DNA from: Candidatus Nomurabacteria bacterium
GTDB lineage: Bacteria; Patescibacteriota; Dojkabacteria; SC72; JAHDCA01
Assembly: GCA_020632375.1 (NCBI GenBank)
Contig: JACKFR010000002.1
Span: forward strand, 1-49,994
DNA length: 49,994 nt
Reading direction: 5' to 3'
Shown here: in pieces, positions 38,354 through 49,994 of the stretch
Numbering within the stretch: position 1 is the first letter of the stretch
Layout: each line of letters begins with the position of its first letter
Notes under the pieces: generated by a model
The model's input: only the letters and a program-made list of their open reading frames with translations
What the model was told of the DNA's origin: nothing
Databases searched by the model: none
Translations under genes and position numbers: made by a program

Positions 38354-39697
38354 ATGATAATGTTTCCCAAGCTTCCTGATCAAGATGACTACCTTTTAGA
38401 CCTTCAAAATAACAACTATTCAATGAAAACTGTTTATAACTATGCAAGAGATTTGTGTATTTTTGCTTCTTTCCTCAGCTCGCATAAAGTTTCTTTTGAG
38501 AATCTCGATAAAAAAACAGTTACAATTTATAAAGGCTATCTGAAAAACGGAGATCATCTCATTGATTTGAATGATTTTAGAGAAAATATTGCTAAAAACG
38601 CTGGACTGTTAGGGAAATCAGTTGCGAGGCTCTCTAAGGGGTCTAAAACGAACGAAATATATCCAAGTACTGGTTCTATACCTGTTGAAGAGCCTCAAAA
38701 TTCGGATTTATCAGGAAATTACTTAGATGACGTTTACAAAAAAGTCTACGGGAGTCTTGGACTTATACAAACTCGTGTGCAGAAGCCTAAGTCAACAAAT
38801 GGTCTTGATGCACGGAGCATTAATCGGATGCTTTCTGCTTTGAGATCGTATTTGAAATACCGCATTGACTTTGAACTTGAAGTCCCGATTCCGCCAGATG
38901 CGATCAAATTAATAAAGACGATCAAGAAGAAATCTCAAGTAGCAGAGTTTGAAGAGCTGGTGAAACTCATTGAATGTCCGACCGAGTTTGAAAAAGATTT
39001 TAAGATTGGATTGAGGAATCGGACTATGCTGGAAATACTTTTTTCAACTGGAATGCGAATTTCTGAACTAATTGGTTTAGACCTAGAACAGATAAATTCT
39101 GAAGGAAAACTGTTTATTCTTGGCAAAGGTAAGAAACAACGGTTTGTTTATCTGACTGATAGAGCCCTTGGCTGGCTTGATAAATATCTTACAGTAAGAC
39201 TTCGTTATGCAAATGCTTCAGGTAATCATGGCAAAGAGCTTATTGATCGTGAAACGCATATGGACAAAAGTGTTTCACAGGATCTTGTCCAAAGCAGCTC
39301 AAACAGCCTTCCTGAAGTTCAAGATGCTTCCGGTGGCAATAAAAATATTGTTCTAGTAGAGAATTATCGCTCGAGTGGGTTCCTGAGTAAATTCGACTCC
39401 CCTGCCCTCTTTATTCCTTTTGGCGGTAGGAGATCTGGTAAACGGGATGCAAGAATATCTACTAATTATTTCCAAGAGAAGATCGCTGATTATAGACGTA
39501 GATTGGGGATTCAGGTTCCGACTTCGGCGCATAGTTTGAGGCATGGTTTCGCAACTTATCTTGCAGAGAATGGCGCAAGCCCTGCCGCAATACAGGTTTT
39601 GCTCGGGCATGAAAGCCTAAATACGACTACAAGGTATGTGCATGCCAGTGATAAGTTTGCGGAGGAACAGCATCGGAAAAAGCATCCGTTGGGGTAG
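38354..39697 (+). CDS. XerC/XerD-family tyrosine recombinase with two large insertions
   Basis: YSMKTVYNYARDL SAM-like N-domain, then the catalytic R (GMRISEL), K (GKGKKQR), HxxR (HSLRH), H (LLGH) and Y (TTRYVH). Confidence 0.93.
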   Translation: MIMFPKLPDQDDYLLDLQNNNYSMKTVYNYARDLCIFASFLSSHKVSFENLDKKTVTIYKGYLKNGDHLIDLNDFRENIAKNAGLLGKSVARLSKGSKTNEIYPSTGSIPVEEPQNSDLSGNYLDDVYKKVYGSLGLIQTRVQKPKSTNGLDARSINRMLSALRSYLKYRIDFELEVPIPPDAIKLIKTIKKKSQVAEFEELVKLIECPTEFEKDFKIGLRNRTMLEILFSTGMRISELIGLDLEQINSEGKLFILGKGKKQRFVYLTDRALGWLDKYLTVRLRYANASGNHGKELIDRETHMDKSVSQDLVQSSSNSLPEVQDASGGNKNIVLVENYRSSGFLSKFDSPALFIPFGGRRSGKRDARISTNYFQEKIADYRRRLGIQVPTSAHSLRHGFATYLAENGASPAAIQVLLGHESLNTTTRYVHASDKFAEEQHRKKHPLG

Positions 39698-39826
39698 TAT
39701 TTATTACTTTTCAAGAGTTGAGTAAATATACCCATCGAAATCTGTTGACTGGAGTATCCATCCCGAAACTTTGACAGATTCCTCTTTTTATAGGCTCTCT
39801 TTAAGATTCCATTGAGTATCCTGTTA

Positions 39827-40035
39827 TACCCTTCATTGAATCATATTTGGGTAGGGATTCAAACATCACCTATGAATACCGTCTAGACAATATATCAGAG
39901 ATCATTCCCCTCTTTGCTTTCAGTAGAATTCTCTTTATCGTTTATCTCCAAGCTTTTACTTATCGCCCGCTTTTGAGGATTTTTCTCCAACATCAGTATG
40001 CAATATCCATCCGATTAACTCCTCAATGAAGGGTA
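39827..40035. repeat. 13-bp perfect inverted repeat pair
   Basis: TACCCTTCATTGA (39827-39839) and TCAATGAAGGGTA (40023-40035). Confidence 0.85.
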
Positions 40036-41371
40036 CTGAAGCATGTGCATCAGTGTCTTGATCAGTGTAATAATTATCTCTTTGATAAAGGTGGTTGCGA
40101 CTTATCTCTTTTGCAGAGAACAAGAGGGAGAGAGCATGTTTATACTCCTTCTGACTGGATAAGTACCTGGCATAAAGCACGTATGAAGGGATGAAGAAAT
40201 GGTCGTGTCTAATTGACTTCTCTAAATACTTTTTTTGTGTTGAGAACTTCTCCTTTTTCATCTCGCCATTAACGAATGCCAACCGAAAGTAGATGTAAGG
40301 TAGGTACTTCTTGTTTTCGTTTGGATTTGATAACACTGGATGTGACAATATCTCCGAAAGAACAGACAATGCCTTGTCAGGATCTTCTTTAGCGTGTTTG
40401 AAGCTTAAAGCTAGTCCCTCATCGACTAAGTAAGGAAGGTACTCCGAAAATTCGCTTTCGAATTGTGTAACTGTTCTGGTGCTGTGTGAATTAACAAAGC
40501 TTTTATACTTGTTAAGTGTACTCTTCTTTTGGACAAACTTTTTGTAGTAAGGGCTTGAATAAAGGCTTGGAAATCCTTTTATCATTTGGTTTAATGCTAG
40601 ATCAAAATGGTGTCGGTCGTAGAGACAGTAACACGCTGATATAATGTTAAAATAGATATCATTTTTCTTCTCTTTCACTTCATTGCTTAACTCCTCGTTT
40701 TTCTTGTATCGATGCCATATCCAGATGTTGGGATCAAAATAACAGTCAAACCCGAAAAGGTATGCTGTTAAAGAAAATGTACGATCTTCTGGCCCCCATT
40801 TCTCAATATAATCTCCAAAGCCGTGAACCTTTTCAAACACTTCTCTTCTAACGATAAGGCTTGCAGCAATTACAAATGGAACTCGAAAGATCCTGCGTGT
40901 CGTTTTCTTGGGTATTATCCATCTTGGAGAGAAAAAAGTTCTGTCAGAATTTGTATAAATATTAATAGTAGATAAATCCGGTGAATCTGAGTAAAGACTT
41001 TCATCTAGACAGTGAATTCCTAGAATAGCTATTTTAGGCGAATTCTTTAAACGACTTTCAACCTTACTTAGAAGGTTTTCCGGAAATATCATGTGAGCAT
41101 CAACAAACATAAAGACCTCGCCTTTAGCTGATTTCGCCCCTAGGTTTCTCGCTTTTGCCACACCAAGGCCTACTTCATTTCGTAATAACTTTACCTTTGA
41201 GTACTCTTTATTTTGGTTAGTAATGAATTTTGTGGATCCATCTGTAGATCCGTCGTCAACTATAATAATCTCATAATTTACTTTTCTCCCTTTACAGGAA
41301 CTTATTAAGGAATCAACAGTCTTTTTTAGCCAGAAACCCTCATTAAAAGTCACAATTATAACTGATATCAA
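39956..41371 (-). CDS. GT2 glycosyltransferase (ppGalNAc-T-like motifs) with C-terminal TPR-like region
   Basis: IIIVDDGSTDGS, ARNLG, FVDAH (DxH), WGPED and WH. The helical tail YLEKSIRHDHFFIPSYVLYARYL is TPR-like. TTG start. Confidence 0.88.
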   Translation of the reverse strand: MISVIIVTFNEGFWLKKTVDSLISSCKGRKVNYEIIIVDDGSTDGSTKFITNQNKEYSKVKLLRNEVGLGVAKARNLGAKSAKGEVFMFVDAHMIFPENLLSKVESRLKNSPKIAILGIHCLDESLYSDSPDLSTINIYTNSDRTFFSPRWIIPKKTTRRIFRVPFVIAASLIVRREVFEKVHGFGDYIEKWGPEDRTFSLTAYLFGFDCYFDPNIWIWHRYKKNEELSNEVKEKKNDIYFNIISACYCLYDRHHFDLALNQMIKGFPSLYSSPYYKKFVQKKSTLNKYKSFVNSHSTRTVTQFESEFSEYLPYLVDEGLALSFKHAKEDPDKALSVLSEILSHPVLSNPNENKKYLPYIYFRLAFVNGEMKKEKFSTQKKYLEKSIRHDHFFIPSYVLYARYLSSQKEYKHALSLLFSAKEISRNHLYQRDNYYTDQDTDAHASVPFIEELIGWILHTDVGEKSSKAGDK

Positions 41372-41504
41372 GGCAATAGGTATAAGAAGTAAACTTGTGG
41401 GTAAAATTGAAAGTAAGACAAAGAACCTTAATCTAAAATGACGTATGTAATATTCTCTCTTATCTTTATTCTTAACTGTATATTCCTAGTAGTTGTTGAT
41501 CTCT

Positions 41505-44500
41505 TTAGCCCTGTATCGTTGGGAGAGGAATGTCATCATCTCGATCTAGCGGTTCTAAAGGTGAACTAACAATAACTGGAGCTTTGATTGTTTCATCGTC
41601 TGTTGTTCCAACGGCTGATTCATCGGTTGTTGGTACTTCGGGTGATGGTTCATCGGGTGGTCTTACTTCAGTTGTTGGCATCTGAAATGAAATTCTTTCT
41701 TCAGGCATGCCTCCTTCTATAAGTAGCGATTTAATTAACCTTCGTGCTTTCTTAGGTAAACCTCCTCCTTGGATTACAATGCTTCCTCTATCGAGTTTGT
41801 ATCTAGCTTTGTAAGACTCTTCACCTCTCCTTACTAATATCCTTGAGTCATCTGCGCTGATTCCGGCTTCTCCTCTTAGTTGTCCTCCTCTAGATGTCCC
41901 TTTAGGATAATAAAAATTGTCTTCTCCTAGGGCTCTTCCTTGTCCTTTTAACAAGTTTGTTCTTAGAAGTGAGGGAAGAGAATATATGGGGGGGAATTTC
42001 CCAGTTATTGGTACATCGGCTGTTGTTCCAACGGCTGTTGTTTCATCGGTTAGTGGTACTTCGGCTTGTGGTTCAACGGCTGGTGGTTCCTCGGTTGATC
42101 CATCGGCTAGTGGTTCATCGGCTAGTGGTTCATCGGCTGGTGATTTACCGGTTGGTGGTACATCGGCTGGTACCTCGGCTGGTGGTACCTCGGCTGGTAC
42201 CTCGGCTGGTGATTCCTCGGCTGGTACCTCGGCTGGTGATTCCTCGGCTGGTGATTCCTCGGCTGGTGATTCTGATACCTCTCGGCTGGTGATTCCTCGG
42301 CTGGTGGTGATTTACCGGTTGGTGGTACCTCGGCTGGTGGTACCTCGGCGGCGGCTGGTGGTACCTCGGCTGGTGGTACCTCGGCTGGTGGTACCTCGGC
42401 TGGTGGTACCTCGGCTGGTGGTACCTCGGCTGGTGGTACCTCGGCTGGTGATTCCTCGGCTGGTGATTCCTCGGCTGGTGATTCCTCGGCTGGTGATTCC
42501 TCGGCTGGTGATTCCTCGGCTGGTGATTCCTCGGCTGGTGATTCCTCGGCTGGTGATTTACCGGCTGGTGGTTCATCGGCTGGTACCTCGGCTGGTGGTA
42601 CCTCGGCTGGTGGTACCTCGGCTGGTGGTGGTACCTCGGCTGGGGTACAACGGCTGGTTGATCCATCGGCTGGTGATTTACCGGTTGGTGGTACCTCTGG
42701 CTGGCTGGTACCTCGGCTGGTACCTCGGCTGGTGGTACCTCGGCTGGTGGTGGTACCTCGGCTGGTGGTACCTCGGCTGGTGATTCCTCGGCTGGTGATT
42801 TACCGGTTGGTGGTACATCGGCTGGTACCTCGGCTGGTGGTACCTCGGCTGGTGGTTCCTCGGCTGGTGATTTACCGGTTGGTGGTACATCGGCTGGTAC
42901 CTCGGCTGGTGGTACTCGGCTGGTGGTACCTCGGCTGGTGGTTCCTCGGCTGGTGATTCCTCGGTGGTGATTACCTCGGCTGGTGGTCCTCCTCGGCTCG
43001 GCTGGTGATTCCTCGGCTGGTGATTCCTCGGCTGGTGGATTCCTCGGCTGGTGATTCCTCGGCTGGTGGTACCTCGGCTGGTGATTGGTACTCGGCTGGT
43101 GGTACATCGGCTGGTACCTCGTACCTCGGCTGGTACCTCGGGTGGTGGTTCCTCGGTACCTGGTACCTCGGCTGGTGGTACCTCGGCTGGTGGTTCAACG
43201 GCTGCTGGTGATCGGCTGGTGGTACTCGGTGGTGGTACTTCGGCTGATGGTACCTCGGTGATGGGCTTGGTGATGGACAACGGTGATGGGCTCGGTTGGT
43301 GGTACTTGGTGATGGGCTCGGTGATGATTTCGGTTGAGGTGGGTGGATGGGCTCGGTGATACCTCGGATGGGCTCAGTGGATCGGCTGGGCTCGGTGATG
43401 GGCTCGGTGATGGGCTCGGTGATGGGCTCGGTGATGGAGCTCGGTGATGGCTCTCGGTGATGGTGATGGTGCTCGGTGATGGGCTCGGTGATGGGCCTGG
43501 TGATGGGCTGGTGATGGGCTCGGTGACGGGCTCGGTGATGGGCTCGGTGATGGGCTCGGTGATGGGCTCGGTGATGGGCTCGGTGATGGGCTCGGTGATG
43601 GGCTCGGTGATGGGCTCGGTGATGGGCTCGGTGATGGGCTCGGTGATGGGCTCGGTGCTGATGGGCTCAGTGATGATGGGCTCGGTGATGGGCTCAGTGG
43701 TGATGGGCTCGGTGACGGGCTCGGTGATGGGCTTGGTGATGGGCTCGGTGATGGGCTCGGTGATGGGCTCAGTGATGGGGCTCGGTGATGGGCCTGGTGA
43801 TGGGCTCGGTGATGGGCTCGGTGATGGGCTCGGTGAGCTCGGTGATGGGCTCGGTGATGGGGGTGATGGCGGCTCGGTGATGGGCTCGGTGATGGGCTGA
43901 TGGGTGATGGGTGTGATGGGCTCGGTGATGGGCTCGGTGATGGGCTCGGTGATGGGCTCGGTGATGGGCTCGGTGATGTCGGTGGTGTCGGTGGTGTCGG
44001 TGGTGTCGGTGGTGTCGGTGGTGTCGGTGGTGTCGGTGGTGTCGGTGGTGTCGGTGGTGTCGGTGGTGTCGGTGGTGTCGGTGGTGTCGGTGGTGTCGGT
44101 GGTGTCGGTGGTGTCGGTGGTGTCGGTGGTGTCGGTGGTGTCGGTGGTGTCGGCGCTGCTGGCGGATTACCTCCTCCTACAGTTCCCATCCCGCCCGGGA
44201 CTGCATTCTGACTAATATCATTTGCAACCAAAGCGCCCATTAATAAGCCTCCAGCCGCTGGACCAACAAGTGCTCCTGCAGTACTTAGGATGTTGTCAGA
44301 AGCGGGGTTCCCAATGTCTGAAGGCCCCGGTAAGCCCCATGCTGAAGCTGCACCGCCAATTACTTGGTTCCCTAGATCGCCTAGATTGATCATAGGGATC
44401 TCATGAGTGTCATATGTGCCCATCTGATGTGCAAGGTCAAACTGCCCACCAGCAGTTCCGGAGGTTCCGTTTACAACTGCTCCCCATTTAGCAAGTGAGT

Positions 44501-47500
44501 TCGGAGCGAGCACGTTTAAGTTAATTTCCTCTCCAATATGTACTGTGTGATAATTATCTGGGCGAGGTGCGTTTTGTTGCATTTCTGCCCAAGCTTCATT
44601 TGCGAATCTTCCCGAGTCTCCATCTGATAATCCAGATTCACGTCCTATTCTTGCAAGATTTCCCCAAATAGTACTATTTTCTGCAACGCCTTCTTCGGCC
44701 ATATCTGCACTCCAGTCCTGGGTTATTTTGAAGACACCCGGCAGAGAACCTCCACCGCCAACTGAAGCTCCTGAATTTAGTAGAGTTTGACCAGTTGTAA
44801 GATCTTGAACCAGAACATTATGACCGTTCTGGCCGAAACTATTTATTACATGATACTGTCCATCAGGCTGGCGTTCGATTCTTATTGCTTCAGTAAAGCT
44901 TGACTGGACTCCTTGTGGTACTGCTCCTCCGCCTGCTGCTGCTACATGTATTGCGGTTGCTTGATCTAAATCTTGTATTGTTCCGACATGCACATGTCCA
45001 GATGTATCTACTTCATAGAACATATGGATATCTTTTCCGTCTACTGCACTTCCTGCTTGTAGATTTTGAGCCGCAGCGTGATTTATTATTGCTCCTGTCA
45101 GATGTAATCCATTAGCTCCTGGAGTTCCAAGCTGTACTACATCGATATCTGAAACATGTTTTCCGAGTTCAAATGCAGCTACTGTATGCATTACTTCGGG
45201 GTTGGCTCCTGCTCCTTGAGCGAGAACAATATGACCGGTGTCGACATGTAAGTACTGATCTACATCAAAACCAGGAGGTGTTGTGTGCGAAGAAAGAGCC
45301 TGAAGTGCGTGCTGGTCTACTGGAACCCATACGTCTGTTTGTCCATCGTGCATGCCTGCTGCATGTGGTCCGCTTAGGTCTAAGCCAACTGCGTAACCAG
45401 CGTGACTATTTCCTGCTGCATCAGTATATGAGTACTCCCTTACGTCAGTAACATCTGCATCTACACCATGTTCAGCTTTCCATTCGGCGTCAACCTTTTT
45501 GTTCATTTCTTCAAGGCTGGCTTTGCTTCGATACTTTTCTATCGCATGGACGTTTTTCCCTGCTTCTGTATAAGCTGCTAGAGCTCTCAATGCAGCAGTC
45601 CCAACCGTAGCGGTTATAATTTTCCCTGCATTGTATGCCGCATGAGCACCGGTTGCAGTGAGAGCTGCGTCTCCCTTTATAACTTTTGCTTCAAGAAGGC
45701 CTCTTTGGAGTTCAAATTTTTCTTCTTTGAGCTGTGCTTTTACGATTTCTCCAAATTGATTAAGGAGGACTCTGTTTCCTCTGTTTCTAGCTGCTTCTCG
45801 TGCTGCAAGGACCTGAGAAACTCTTTGATCTCTTGTCGCTCCTACAGGAACAGTAATTGAAAATAGGCTCTCTATTCGTGCAAGGTCAGCATCAGGAATT
45901 TTTGTTGTGTCTTTAAGTAGCGTTTCAACTTTCCCATCGTAGGCTACGACCTTATCTTTGAGGAGTTTGTATGCATCTAGGTCACCTTCGTATTCGATTT
46001 TTGCCTTTACCATTTCTAACACAACATCTCCGGCTATTCTAAGTCCCCAACTTACACCTGGTAGTGGAACCGCCATTGAAATACCAGATAATGCGCCACC
46101 GAAGATTGCAGCACCCCAAGAGTACTTGTTAAATTTAGATAAGCTCGCATTACTACCTAAAGCAGCTTTAGCTTTTCTTACTCCTTGTACAGCTTTTACA
46201 GCACCATATATACTCATTAGGCCTCCCGCTGCTAACAATAAAGGTGCTCCTCCGACTGCACTAATACCGGCCGCTCCTGCAGTGTAAAGCAAACTGACTC
46301 CAAGTTGTTTTAGATACTTTGACTTGTTCTTCCAGATCTTCTTTAAGGCTCCTTTAAGCCAGCCTTTTTCAGTCGGATCTTCCAGTGCTTCAACTGTTGC
46401 AGCGATTTCTTCTGAACTTTGTATCCCTGGGATCTCACCTGCTGGAACCATTTCCCCTGGGTTGGCGGGGTTTGGTACCTCGACTCTTTCTACTGCATCG
46501 AGGAAGTCTGCGACAGTAGTAGATAGTGCCTCTTTTCTTGTCTCTTCAGGAGATTTTCCAGACCTGACATATTCAAGCAGATATTTGAGGTTTGTCGCAT
46601 ACGGTGTTGAAAGAGCTTCCAAATCACCGTTGATCCGGCCATCGCTTAGGCCTTTGATTGTTTTACCTGCGACTAGATTGGGGTTTGCAACTGTGCCGGC
46701 GGCTTCTTTTAGTCTTTGTTCAAGCTGTGCCTTATCTGCTGGAGTTAAGGTTGTTAGATCATAACCAAGCTTCTGAAGAACAGGGTCAAAGTTTGCTCCT
46801 GTTTTAGCTCGATTAAGAATATCTGCAGCCATTTTGAAGTGGGCGACTGTACGCAGCCCGCTCCACATGCGATTAAGGGCTTCATTTTCTTTACTGCCGT
46901 ATGCTTTAACTTTGAGTTCGCCTGTTGGAATTGTTTCGCCTGCTGCCTGGTCTGCGAGTCGAAGATCATTAAGCATCGATCCTGCAGCGTTTGGTACTGT
47001 GAGTGTAAGGCTTGAAGGGTCTTTATCAAAGAAGAGATCCATAAGGCTCTCAGCAAGGGCTTCAGGTCTGGCTGCTCCACCAGTTGCGATCGGCTCCATG
47101 ATAAAGTGTGAAAAGAGCCCATACATTGTTTGCTTATCTATATCTTTACCTCTTGGTGCTTTCTCTTTCGCAATATCTTTTATCCCTTTTGCCAATATTG
47201 CCGTCTGGACAAGAGTTGCGACTTTGTCAGCAAGGGCTTTGTCTACAGCTGCTACTGAGAGTAGCCTGTCATATACAACTGGGTTCTGAGAGTCACTTTC
47301 TACCAGTGCTCTGAGTGCAGTTATATCTAAGGCTGCAAGCTCCGGATCTGGAGGAGGACCGGCTTTTTTCGCTTCAATTTCGGTCACTGCTTTTTCAAGG
47401 GCTATTTTTTGTATAGTCTCAACAGCGTATTCAGGGTTTGCCGTGTTGTCGAATTCTTGGGCAAGCTTCTTGACTTCAGTATCTGAAGTCGGAAGCTCTT

Positions 47501-48866
47501 TAATTGCTCGACTTGCCTTTAGGCCTGCCATAGTTCTTTCCCGGTGACTTTTAGTACTGTCACCCATGCCACGAGCTCCTTTAAGCCCAATTGCAATTAT
47601 TTTTCGACCATTCTTACCATTATTTGCTCGAATCGCTTTATCCATTTGTTCGAGGAGTTTTTTGGCTTCTGCTCCGGTTGCTCCTCCTGGGGCTGCTGTT
47701 ATGCCTTTGTAGAGGACTTCACCAGAATTGATCCAGTCGTTAATCTGACCAACGCCGTTGTTATCGGTTACATTGAGGCTATAGCCACCTGCGGGGTTTG
47801 TGATCGGCTGGGTTGATGCTGCTTTCGTGTTAATTGTTGTCGGCGTCGGTACTGATGTATCTGTATGATTGAGTGTAAGCGTCGTTACTTTGCCATTCAT
47901 TCTATTAACAAGTACCTTTCGATTAGCCTTTACATTTGCTCTGCTGTTTGCTGAGTATGCCCCTACAACGGTGTCTCTCAAATATGGTGCAAGTGCTGGA
48001 TCGGCAGCTGCCAAGTCAATGGCTTTTTTCTGAATAAGAAGCTGAACGGTTTTCTTAAATGAGTCGTCTCTAAAAAAATCTTTAGGGTTCGCAGAATTGA
48101 GAAGCCCTAGAAACTGTTCTACTGCATGAGGGTCAGTAAGTCTTATAAAGATTGCTGCTGCAATTATTTCTTGGGCATGAGTATCGTTTACTGTCGGCGG
48201 TGTGCCAGTAGACTCAGGAGATAATCCAGCAACTGCTGCTTTAATATCATTAAATACAGCTGCATTTCTTAATGCGACTAGTGTACTAGGATCTACTCCA
48301 AACTTACTTTGGATAAGCTCTTCTATTTTTGAAGAAAAGTTGTTTCCCGCTGAATCTTTGCCATAAATCCCATCGACCACCTCTTTAGCAGTGAATTCGA
48401 TTGCTCCCATTGATCTGAGATCTTCAGCAGGATCAATCTCTAGAAGCGGATCAGGGTTTTCCATAATTTTCTCGATCTCCATATCTGCTGCGGGATGGTT
48501 GGAATCCTTGTCATACAGCTGTCCTTGACGAGCCTTCTTCTCACCTGTATTCTCCCACTTTACCGCTTCCATCATATCTGTAGAAGCAATCTTTAGAGCT
48601 TCTTGTACCGCTCCTGCTAGTTCAGCTTTCTTAGTTTTACCCTTTTCATAAACTAAAGCTGGATCAGTGACTTGAGGCCTCTGAGCTTCTGGGACGTCTT
48701 TAAGATGGCTCGGAACACCAGTATCAGCAAGATAGTGTGGGACAATTGCTGCCGCCTGTAAAAGGTCTGCTGCTTCATGGCTTTTTGCTTGTGCTTCGTT
48801 GGGAAGTTTTTTGGTGTCTATAGTTGCAGGACCGCTAGCTCTGCGAAATGGATTGGGCATTGGCAT
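41505..48866 (-). CDS. Giant (~2,450 aa) repeat-rich surface-type protein, reading frame interrupted by indels within its repeats
   Basis: The ORF track gives 43374-48866 (1830 aa). The frame of the 41505-41954 ORF stays open upstream to 42311 and reads AEESPA/AEVPPA repeats. The intervening ORFs flip between frames of the same repeat units, and there is no intergenic gap. Confidence 0.75.
42078..43256 (-). repeat. Degenerate 15-bp coding repeats (EVPPA/EESPA) with a 72-bp higher-order unit
   Basis: Units GGCTGGTGGTACCTC and GGCTGGTGATTCCTC on the + strand. The GGTGATTTACCGGTTGGTGGTACATCGGC block recurs near 42139, 42794 and 42866. Boundaries are approximate. Confidence 0.92.
43257..43980 (-). 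repeat. 12-bp coding tandem repeat (SPSP)
   Basis: (GGTGATGGGCTC)n on the + strand. On the - strand it reads SPSP, EPIT or AHHR depending on frame. Boundaries are approximate. Confidence 0.93.
43981..44151 (-). repeat. Perfect 9-bp tandem repeat x19 encoding (PTP)n
   Basis: (GGTGGTGTC)19 = 171 bp with no variant copies. Confidence 0.97.
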
Positions 48867-49467
48867 TTTTCTTTGCTTGATAAATTAAGGCAATTGCTTC
48901 TTCTTCGTTGCCTTCATCGAACAGAGCAACGACCTTTTCGAAGTCTTCTTTTGGCAGCTGAGATAGGTGCATTACAATTTCAGATTCTTTTTCAATTGCT
49001 TGGGTAAGTTCTTTTGTTGCGGTTTCTAATTCGGCATCAAATACATCGTCAAAGGTTTTTTGCATGACAGCTTCACAGAAATGATTAAGCAAAACGAATT
49101 GCTGGAGGACATTGGGTTTGTGGAGTAAAAGATTGTTCCACTTAGCTTTTACTTCAGGTGGCATCGCTTTGCTGATTTTGTCTTCAGATCTTAACAGTGC
49201 GACATCTGTAACCTTACCCACTATATCTAAGACTGTTTCTTCGCTGACTCCCCTACTTTTGAGAAACTCAATGAGTTTCGTGAGTCGATCTTGGCCTTTG
49301 GTGAGTTTGAAAAAGTCATCGTCCAGGCCTCGAAGCATTTCTGCTATTTCTTTAGAATCAGCATCGCCTTGAGTTTCAAGGTCACTTGCAATTTGCATCA
49401 CCTGGTCTTTAGTAAGATTGAAGATCTGATTGAGATCTTCAGGGAATTTGAAGTCTGAGTTGGCCAT
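48835..49467 (-). CDS. Hypothetical acidic all-helical protein (possibly DUF5663-like)
   Basis: 210 aa, no TM. Overlaps the giant gene start by 32 nt. The DUF5663 resemblance is only a recalled pattern. Confidence 0.78.
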   Translation of the reverse strand: MANSDFKFPEDLNQIFNLTKDQVMQIASDLETQGDADSKEIAEMLRGLDDDFFKLTKGQDRLTKLIEFLKSRGVSEETVLDIVGKVTDVALLRSEDKISKAMPPEVKAKWNNLLLHKPNVLQQFVLLNHFCEAVMQKTFDDVFDAELETATKELTQAIEKESEIVMHLSQLPKEDFEKVVALFDEGNEEEAIALIYQAKKNANAQSISQS

Positions 49468-49509
49468 AGTTTATAAGGCAGTTTAGAAGTTATTAATACT
49501 TTCTCTACC

Positions 49510-49538
49510 AATATATATAGTAGAAAGGGGTGTGTCAA
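49510..49538 (-). promoter_or_regulatory. Near-consensus sigma70 promoter of the giant-protein unit
   Basis: TTGACA (49538-49533), 17-bp spacer, TATATT (49515-49510), about 43 nt upstream of the ATG at 49467. Confidence 0.75.
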
Positions 49539-49668
49539 ACAAAAGTTCCCCTTTGAGGTAGGGTTTTGGAAGGTTTCTGGTGGCTTTTGGCGGTTGGCTT
49601 GAGTGGGTTTGAGGAGGACGAGAAGGAATGGCTTGAGGGAGGCTTTGATATGGGCTTTTATCCGGAGT

Positions 49669-49994
49669 TTATCTTAAACGTAAAACACCGTTTATGGTTT
49701 CTGCGAGATCACCGTTTGAGATGTCTGCAGGATGGGTGTTGAAGAGGATTCCAGGTCGGTGCCCATATAGTCTTAAATAACTTAAAATCTGACCTACATG
49801 AGGAAGTCGTAAAGTGGATACACTTAACGGTACTCCCATTGTTACTGACATGGCCGTTTTTTGTCCAAATGTGTGATTCTCGGGATTATCATCGGTTGCG
49901 AAAGGAGATATTTCAATTTCACCTATTAATTCTGGATTTGTTAACACAAATGTCACGATTTTGCTTAAGGCATCTGAATAAGTGTAGCTTGGAT
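49669..49994 (-). CDS. 3' end of a hypothetical protein truncated by the window edge
   Basis: The frame of the 49669-49956 ORF stays open to the window end (...PSYTYSDALSKIVTFVLTNPE...). Confidence 0.65.
   Translation of the reverse strand, partial: PSYTYSDALSKIVTFVLTNPELIGEIEISPFATDDNPENHTFGQKTAMSVTMGVPLSVSTLRLPHVGQILSYLRLYGHRPGILFNTHPADISNGDLAETINGVLRLR

Follow-up and report, generated by a model that had tools for sequence, protein, structure and literature searches.

A lineage-specific pairing of a GT27-like glycosyltransferase with a Pro/Thr/Ser-repeat tail, added to an older two-gene module, probably of the envelope, in Dojkabacteria

Introduction

Bacterial protein O-glycosylation is known to be carried out by oligosaccharyltransferases, by GT4 enzymes (GtfA/B), by GT41 enzymes, by enzymes of the GT-C/PMT type and by the glycosyltransferase (GT) family 2 enzymes of glycocins. 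The serine-rich-repeat adhesins of streptococci and staphylococci are glycosylated in the cytoplasm by the products of adjacent GT genes, and glycocin GT2 enzymes such as SunS are soluble GT-A enzymes, encoded beside their substrate, that modify a ribosomal peptide before its export. The eukaryotic polypeptide GalNAc-transferases (ppGalNAc-Ts) of family GT27, which initiate O-glycosylation of the mucin type, prefer Thr or Ser residues flanked by Pro, the IgA1 hinge (PSTPPTPSPS) being a classical substrate. To our knowledge, mucin-type O-glycosylation started by GT-A enzymes of the DxH type counts as an invention of eukaryotes. Here, we analyzed a stretch of 49,994 nucleotides (nt), called the window below, from contig JACKFR010000002.1 of a Candidatus Nomurabacteria bacterium (assembly GCA_020632375.1; Dojkabacteria), in which the gene of a soluble DxH-type GT directly follows a giant gene with long Pro/Thr/Ser-repeat arrays.

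Three co-oriented genes on the minus strand are concerned: a partner gene (48835-49467; 210 amino acids, aa), the giant gene (43374-48866; 1830 aa as assembled) and the GT gene (39956-41371; 471 aa). The window is part of a 735-kb genome in 14 contigs with a G+C content of about 38%, and the genomes classed as relatives of the source organism all measure 0.5 to 1.6 Mb. A preliminary description had taken the three genes for a dedicated O-glycosylation system that makes a mucin-like stalk. Our analysis partly confirmed the observation and partly supported this interpretation: the locus joins a GT27-like transferase to a Pro/Thr/Ser-repeat tail in this lineage alone, on top of a two-gene envelope module of greater age.

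Results

The 471-aa enzyme resembles polypeptide GalNAc-transferases in sequence and fold

The GT matches the Pfam family Glycos_transf_2 (PF00535) over residues 3 to 181 (E = 1.3e-28; 100.5 bits versus a cutoff of 23.3). The motifs listed in the preliminary description, DxH (FVDAH), WGPED and WH, were indeed found, at residues 89 to 93, 192 to 196 and 219 to 220. In a phmmer search against the PDB, ppGalNAc-Ts aligned over residues 3 to 226 with E values of about 2e-9 to 1e-5, at identities of 16 to 21%. These alignments place FVDAH on the DCH of GalNAc-T12, WGPED on WGGEN and H220 on the His of GHVF, and H220 is invariant across an alignment of the DxH subfamily. When the AlphaFold model (mean predicted local distance difference test, pLDDT, 77.6; above 90 for most of residues 1 to 310) was compared to the PDB with Foldseek, each of the 50 best matches was a GT27 enzyme (E, 4e-14 to 5e-11). 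The likeness to ppGalNAc-Ts that had been proposed from the motifs is thus borne out by both the sequence search and the fold comparison suggested as a check.

The remainder of the protein differs from GT27. No ricin-type lectin domain was found in it (no lectin family match; residues 225 to 459 are all-helical in the model), nor was a membrane helix, anchor or signal peptide, the protein starting at its first beta-strand (MISVIIVTFNE). Residues 318 to 459, approximately, form seven paired helices in the model at a pLDDT of 40 to 76. No Pfam TPR was detected in residues 231 to 471, even at E <= 1, and a HAT-repeat chain (9l5r_J) matched weakly (E = 0.0033). The tail described earlier as TPR-like stands as a helical-repeat region in a model of low to moderate confidence. 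At E <= 0.01, Pfam yielded no GT60-type match, only GT2-type families together with a subthreshold Glyco_transf_7C (16.1 bits versus 23); the top 50 fold matches contained no GT60 member, and the PDB sequence matches at E <= 0.01 contained no SunS-like chain.

The published hallmarks of GT27 are the DxH motif together with a His (His344 in mouse T1) and a ricin-like lectin domain (PMC4202792). GT60 and GT27, both of which transfer to Ser/Thr of polypeptides, have been cited as the example of DxH in place of DxD and fall into one clade with GT7 and a subgroup of GT2 (PMC7185993). Judged from these comparisons, we file the enzyme as a GT2-family member that would work in a GT27-like manner, not as a member of GT27.

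Several DxH relatives of the enzyme are found beside Pro-rich proteins

The closest nonorthologous relatives of the GT (about 30% identity) share the motifs DxH, (W/Y)GxE(D/E) and H(L/Y)F(R/K). One of them (P0008, L048) starts 10 nt downstream of an S8 peptidase gene with (TPF)n repeats, and another (P0010, L060) follows a protein that ends in PPIAPLPPVATLPPPGTVVP and sits in a GT/methyltransferase cluster. P0005 and P0009 are present as triplicate copies beside a CsxB-like spore protein, and spore-surface genes adjoin DxH relatives at L050, L062 and the plasmid hit H1.

As controls, we used GT2 enzymes carrying DxD, which account for 78 of the 80 loci of a metagenome scan; 62 of them have a co-oriented upstream open reading frame (ORF). 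An upstream gene was counted as Pro-rich when a 30-aa window within the C-terminal 150 residues of its co-oriented product held at least 30% Pro. Such a gene was present at 3 of 7 DxH loci versus 0 of 62 DxD loci (Fisher p = 7e-4). With a looser, two-sided definition, the counts were 3/7 and 2/63 (p = 0.006), one of the three cases being a doubtful ORF in DNA of 70% G+C. Because the thresholds were chosen post hoc and the sample is small, the comparison is only suggestive of an enrichment of DxH GT2 relatives beside Pro-rich, Thr/Ser-bearing tails.

Some loci of this subfamily are described here for their own sake. On metagenome contig ERZ27256843 k141_522152 (P0004; L046:8001-13214), a DxH GT2 gene lies between an amidohydrolase gene and that of an NHLP lanthipeptide precursor, which is followed by LanM; a C39 ABC exporter is encoded nearby. 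The precursor core (KSEPKPTTEPAPSPEPT...) reads KSEPKPTTEPAPSPEPTRECCGFCMGTTTTGPEDYK past the GG cleavage site and is rich in Pro, Thr, Ser and Glu, making L046 a candidate O-glycosylated lanthipeptide cluster. Two tandem DxH GT2 genes (P0011 and its paralogue; L061:2214-8855; JGI 3300078365 Ga0643802_0002392) follow a sedolisin gene with a P/A/E/T-rich tail, and genes for a P4H-like 2-oxoglutarate (2OG) oxygenase and a JmjC/cupin hydroxylase flank them within the cassette.

On the plasmid of Cytobacillus spongiae (NZ_CP089998.1; L143:5986-7923), a DxH GT2 is followed by a protein annotated as galactosyltransferase related that carries GWGGEDD and is GT7-like. The two lie near cotE and a gene for a 395-aa protein with two TPTPTPTG motifs, and they are possibly a pair that glycosylates spore-surface proteins. 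At L108:1758-3896 (Ga0181512_1185465), a DxH GT2 gene comes after that of a 306-aa membrane protein with Gly/Ala-rich helices, which ends in ...PSPAPGGTLPPTSGPGSTPSPPPTTFGPPPTTFGPPPT and bears a C-terminal Pro/Thr/Ser-rich repeat (...TPSPPPTTFGPPPTTFGPPPT). A BLASTP comparison (E = 1.6) led us to reject homology between this membrane protein and the giant; we regard it as an analogue.

The pairing with the giant gene is confined to one lineage

The preliminary description had treated the three genes as one system. In the six homologous loci that we recovered (G001, G003, G005, G091, P0121 and P0123), partner and giant are conserved and none of the six carries the GT after the giant gene, which identifies the GT as a lineage-specific insertion. 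A K+ channel gene takes its place in G005, and in G001 the giant gene runs directly into xer. The G003 contig with xer shows, convergent to it, an open-ended 562-aa ORF that begins with PASEAQPEPQAEQPEAP and is probably the C-terminal end of the giant itself.

No orthologue of the GT was found in 60 related genomes (best match, 27% identity over the GT-A domain only), and a scan of genome contigs returned only a generic Methanosphaera GT2. Among 5.8 billion proteins, the sole orthologue was P0002, which is 70% identical and fused to a C-terminal methyltransferase. The GT occurs only where the giant has the PTP/SP expansion and is absent beside the repeat-less homologues (G001, G005, G091, L028 and L029). 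The giant is also the only ORF with an extreme Pro/Ser/Thr tract in the 735-kb genome.

The target of the enzyme may be a protein next door or a glycan of the envelope

We tentatively favor, as plausible though not secure, the reading that the GT O-glycosylates the tail of the giant in the cytoplasm. We do so because the two genes are adjacent and co-oriented without a terminator-like site between them, because the giant is the sole protein of its kind in the genome and the GT occurs only with its expansion, because both enzyme class and subfamily point to protein acceptors, and because a soluble GT and a probably cytoplasmic tail are compatible. Of the dedicated O-glycosylation system proposed earlier, adjacency, ppGalNAc-T likeness and the neighbors of DxH relatives speak for the enzymatic part; its status as a conserved unit does not hold.

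In the mechanism that we propose, an old module restricted to Dojkabacteria would consist of two proteins coupled in translation, a small helical one of acidic character and a giant polytopic membrane protein. The latter would comprise a cytoplasmic N-terminal part of about 850 aa, a Gly/Ala-rich cluster of three helices and an outer domain of about 590 aa, followed in some members by a fourth helix and then a variable tail. The module would have a fixed slot, bounded by envelope-glycan genes on one side and by xer-ruvAB on the other. In this lineage only, the tail past helix 4 would have grown into about 2.2 kb of PTP, SP and PPAEV repeats, and a soluble DxH GT with a helical-repeat tail would have been inserted directly downstream. 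Its gene would be cotranscribed with the giant gene, and its GT-A domain, of the DxH type and GT27/GT60-like, would draw on a UDP-sugar and on a divalent metal that D91, H93 and H220 coordinate. The enzyme would then O-glycosylate Thr and Ser of the Pro-rich tail, which would be either permanently cytoplasmic or modified before export.

Several observations weigh against this proposal. At the level of orthologues, conservation of the GT-giant pairing is absent from the sequences compared: the 3.1-kb contig of P0002 shows neither a giant nor a Pro-rich gene, there is no Pro-rich frame in the 290 nt upstream, and the 50 visible C-terminal residues encoded upstream are not Pro-rich, so the co-occurrence of orthologous GTs with repeat-bearing giants proposed earlier as a check did not materialize. 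G003, the nearest giant homologue, has (A/V)PTP repeats and no GT beside xer, and its genome (97% complete) contains no GT orthologue. In the assembly, the repeats past 43374 fall outside the reading frame. The xED of WGPED, where GT27 has WGGEN, is the form of inverting GT2/GT7 enzymes. A dolichol-phosphate-mannose (DPM) synthase ranks first among the single phmmer hits, and several NCBIfam matches are polysaccharide enzymes; all of these span the generic N-terminal half only. The thresholds of the case-control comparison were set after the cases had been seen, with n = 7, and the locus itself adjoins an envelope-glycan cluster.

This last point makes a role in glycan synthesis natural. The GT may act in envelope-glycan synthesis, with a lipid-linked oligosaccharide or wall polysaccharide as its acceptor on the inner side of the membrane; its place after the giant gene would then be an accident of insertion into a variable slot next to a glycan cluster. 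We consider this possible but rather unlikely. The N-terminal half of the GT does match EpsD, PgaC, WcaE and PglI besides DPM synthase, and a GT2, two GT4s and large polytopic proteins are encoded just upstream of the partner. The slot past the giant is variable (nothing stands there in G001 and G003), the fusion of P0002 to a methyltransferase recalls some glycan-modifying enzymes, and one DxH relative lies in the GT/methyltransferase cluster of L060. However, the matches to polysaccharide enzymes are far under the family cutoffs and cover only the nucleotide-binding half, whereas those that span the whole catalytic domain are ppGalNAc-Ts. DxH relatives are, moreover, mostly situated outside classical polysaccharide clusters, beside peptides and proteins with Pro-rich tails.

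Returning to glycosylation of the giant, we put forward, with still more reserve, a wider proposal: the DxH relatives may form an undescribed bacterial family of soluble GT27/GT60-like GT-A enzymes that make mucin-like O-glycans in the cytoplasm on the Pro-rich Thr/Ser tails of neighboring gene products (proteases, precursors of ribosomally synthesized and posttranslationally modified peptides, spore-surface proteins and membrane proteins). In the window, such an enzyme would have been recruited to the IgA1-hinge-like tail of the giant, about 700 residues long.

The repeat region is broken as assembled

A tandem-repeat scan (TRF) found the 9-nt PTP unit in 20.4 copies with 99% matches, followed by a 12-nt and a 15-nt array (Table 1). 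Indels amount to 11% in the latter two versus 0% in the first. The repeat region has 61 to 64% G+C, compared to the genome-wide value of about 38%. In the 1830-aa ORF (43374-48866) as a whole, we noted zero cysteines and a G+C content of 43 to 51% in its unique part.

The giant had been described as one protein; in the deposited contig, it is not a single ORF. The 1830-aa ORF stops at a TGA (43374-43376), and about 11 frame changes, each of them within about 2.2 kb of repeats, would be required for an unbroken tail that reaches the stop at 41505. Likewise, the earlier count of 19 PTP and roughly 100 SP units fits the read-through product (about 20 PTP, 112 SP and 50 PAE), while only 59 SP, along with 20 PTP, are in frame. 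The gap of 133 nt before the GT, given in the same description, separates the stop (41505) from the start of the GT (41371) and is valid for the read-through giant only.

The repeats are also the exact place where three further public assemblies of this organism break. In an independent NCBI assembly (L023), the last 225 codons are in frame and contain one extra PLADGSTEE unit (L023:1-680 versus window 41505-42200), which reflects either a varying copy number or an uncertain assembly of the array. Since the unit count differs in L023, the array is not reliably assembled; since the other assemblies break at the repeats and L023 is in frame, the frame breaks are more likely assembly errors than real.

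If the breaks and the TGA were real, decay or phase variation would have made a pseudogene of the 3' half of the giant gene. The product would then be limited to 1830 aa ending in PTP/SP/AHHR repeats, with no translation of the PPAEV repeats or of the 149-aa end, and any expression of the GT would depend on signals of its own. The number of frame changes with an in-frame TGA and the uneven distribution of indels among the arrays are in line with this reading, as are phase slips within the 1830-aa ORF that compensate each other and leave the frame open. Yet the breaks are confined to the repeats, the 5.5 kb of unique sequence being intact, and they coincide with the sites where the other assemblies fail; L023 is in frame with a differing unit count, and the 149-aa end forms an unbroken ORF whose frame is that of the PPAEV repeats. 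We therefore regard a pseudogene as doubtful. The matter is partly independent of which target the GT has.

The tail of the giant is most likely cytoplasmic

The giant has no signal peptide and no LPXTG motif on inspection of its sequence. In all homologues, the 15 residues ahead of helix 1 are Lys/Arg-rich, and a Lys/Arg-rich segment follows helix 2. A fourth helix is present in G091 and P0121, with RPRKKK or KRR after it. Under the positive-inside rule, the N terminus would most likely be inside, the middle domain outside and the tail past helix 4 in the cytoplasm. Helix 4 of the window giant has no Lys or Arg on either flank, and its tail topology is consequently extrapolated from the relatives. 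The best-scoring alignments with P0121 and G091 span residues 855 to 939. The motif of the middle domain is LysM-like by eye only; because the AlphaFold model of this domain reached a pLDDT of just 48.7, the model was not used and no fold search was made with it.

The topology of the homologues, by placing the tail in the cytoplasm, weakens the idea of a stalk for host attachment, and with the missing signal peptide it makes a surface stalk doubtful. A surface mucin stalk for host attachment appears, on these sequence features, to be the weakest part of the earlier interpretation. It is improbable that the tail forms an extracellular stalk glycosylated outside by a GT-C-type enzyme with a polyprenol-phosphate sugar, the 471-aa GT having another target: a DPM1-like GT2 of 251 aa and large polytopic proteins are encoded less than 10 kb upstream, the former with the 957-aa polytopic protein being the candidates, helix 4 of the window giant lacks the charges that would fix its orientation, and the O-glycosylation of extracytoplasmic, disordered S/T-rich regions of streptococcal membrane proteins has been described (PMC11092751), but the 957-aa and 565-aa proteins match no Pfam family, GT-C families included, the fourth helix of homologues is followed by strongly basic residues, an N-in start with 3+1 helices puts the tail inside, and a GT27-like soluble enzyme directly after the tail would be left unexplained.

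Partner and giant form a rare module of Dojkabacteria

Neither the partner nor the giant has a Pfam or NCBIfam match, and no giant homologue has a Pfam match. Searched exhaustively with HMMER, 1.84 billion representative proteins contained three relatives of the giant; profile searches found homologues only in G001, G003, G005 and G091 among 221 genomes of the same class and no further ones in 400 genomes across the phylum. Two word-indexed homology searches with the giant gave no matches, probably because they were swamped by low-complexity words, and the family profile gave nothing meaningful against the PDB, only noise from ATP synthase b-subunits.

A protein of 213 to 225 aa overlaps or abuts the 5' side of the giant gene in the homologous loci; in G001, the upstream ORF measures 307 aa and is unaligned. 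The five aligned upstream proteins are 22 to 31% identical to the 210-aa partner and share invariant W110, Q122 and D140. In the window, the 3' end of the partner gene and the ATG of the giant gene overlap by 32 nt. The giants have in common a long N-terminal part without signal peptide, the Gly/Ala-rich cluster and the middle domain with its motif. Their tail is the variable part: it is an RGG tail in G091, nothing follows helix 4 in P0121, the contig of G003 ends inside (A/V)PTP repeats, and the giants of G001, G005 and P0123 have large acidic domains and no fourth helix.

The pair adjoins xer and/or ruvAB in 5 of the 6 loci, L028 showing neither. In G001 and G003, it also adjoins an envelope-glycan cluster of the window type, with two GT4 genes and large polytopic proteins. 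Partner and giant are accordingly a rare, conserved two-gene module without annotation in a few genomes of the Dojkabacteria class, as far as sequence comparison tells, and its role is most likely that of an envelope-spanning scaffold. A phage tape measure, or a type III/IV effector with its chaperone, was also considered for the giant and dropped, as the vicinity holds no phage or secretion genes and the locus, which is chromosomal, keeps its synteny from genus to genus.

The slot between giant and xer is a gene-insertion hot spot. In G005, it is occupied by the gene of a 270-aa K+ channel (Ion_trans_2 and TrkA_N; L037:13245-14057). The Xer-type recombinase that bounds the slot in the window is likewise a neighbor in G001, G003, G005 and L029. 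Recombinases of this type, 447 to 549 aa long, were recorded at window 38354-39697, L037:14156-15637, L044:16755-18287, L057:807-2255 and L059:1626-3260. XerC/D models match this single recombinase in two pieces, which implies that an insert of varying length separates the two halves of its catalytic domain.

Layout of the locus

The arrangement of three co-oriented genes behind a promoter, as first described, was recovered from the ORFs and from a TTGACA-17-TATATT site about 43 nt upstream of the partner ATG at 49467. Promoter-like sites overall are not enriched over shuffled sequence (14 found versus 12 expected). The features are compiled in Table 1.

Table 1. Features of the locus in window coordinates
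Feature	Position	Strand	Basis or remark
Sigma-70-like promoter candidate, TTGACA-17-TATATT	49538..49510	-	11/12 positions match; best site of the region (39500-49994)
Partner gene, 210 aa, acidic (pI 4.6), no signal peptide	48835..49467	-	ORF
Giant residues 1-854, Ala/Lys/Glu-rich, predicted cytoplasmic, no signal peptide	46305..48866	-	Composition, charge pattern
Giant residues 855-939, Gly/Ala-rich hydrophobic cluster (hairpin + third helix)	46050..46304	-	Most conserved part of the family
Giant residues 940-1525, middle domain, predicted extracytoplasmic	44292..46049	-	Conserved motif DQDW..DM..GVA.NST.WGN...FAN.A.AE
Giant residues 1526-1549, last hydrophobic helix directly ahead of repeats	44220..44291	-	Equivalent helix in G091 and P0121
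(PTP)x20 repeat, 9-nt unit	43970..44153	-	TRF and translation
(SPSP) repeat, 12-nt unit x about 60, phase slips reading AHHR	43254..43978	-	TRF and translation
(PPAEV/SPAEE) repeat, 15-nt unit x about 83, not in the frame of the assembled 1830-aa ORF	42009..43258	-	TRF and translation
C-terminal nonrepeat region of the giant gene, 149 aa	41505..41954	-	No homologues, no family match
Gap between giant gene and GT, 133 nt	41372..41504	-	No terminator-like hairpin on coding strand
Soluble GT2-family GT-A glycosyltransferase, 471 aa, helical C-terminal region	39956..41371	-	Pfam, motifs, fold match
Xer-type tyrosine recombinase, convergent with GT, conserved slot boundary	38354..39697	+	Pfam/NCBIfam match

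Discussion

Quite apart from the GT, the partner and giant constitute a conserved gene pair, wholly unannotated, at a fixed chromosomal site of Dojkabacteria. If the GT does glycosylate the tail of the giant, protein glycosylation in the cytoplasm next to the substrate gene would be a known principle, and the type of enzyme would be one not described for this role in bacteria. It would provide a prokaryotic model, possibly the evolutionary root, for GT27 and GT60, as well as a simple soluble enzyme for the synthesis of mucin-like glycopeptides. It would also suggest that ultra-small bacteria of the candidate phyla may glycosylate disordered regions of their largest envelope proteins.

Compared to described systems, the locus shares with the serine-rich-repeat adhesins a very long repeat protein with a GT gene adjacent to it. 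Those systems, however, rely on GT4/GT-B enzymes (GtfA/B), a long signal peptide, LPXTG and SecA2/SecY2, none of which was seen in the window; no sec genes lie in the neighborhood of the locus, and the adjacent GT is a GT2, not a GT4. With the glycocin systems, it has in common a soluble GT2 of the GT-A fold encoded beside its putative substrate, and the DxH relative P0004 adjoins an NHLP precursor and LanM. The substrate here would be a membrane protein of about 2400 aa and not a small peptide.

GT60, a family of polypeptide alpha-GlcNAc-transferases represented by Gnt1, which acts on a hydroxyproline of Skp1 in Dictyostelium and Toxoplasma, resembles the window GT in its DxH motif and in its solubility; Gnt1 works in the cytoplasm with a protein as acceptor, as the window GT would do. 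The P4H-like and JmjC oxygenases beside the DxH GT2s of L061 recall the P4H1-Gnt1 pathway on Skp1. Unlike GT60, the window GT has no GT60-type Pfam match, and the window contains no prolyl hydroxylase gene.

The closest likeness in fold is to GT27, the family of the best PDB fold matches, with which the enzyme shares a GT-A domain with DxH, a metal-binding C-terminal His and apparently a WGxE(D/N) motif of the Gal/GalNAc-transferase type. It differs in that it lacks a lectin domain, a membrane anchor and a secretory signal, has a helical-repeat region instead and reads WGPED. On the side of the putative substrate, the PTP/SP tail resembles the PSTPPTPSPS hinge of IgA1.

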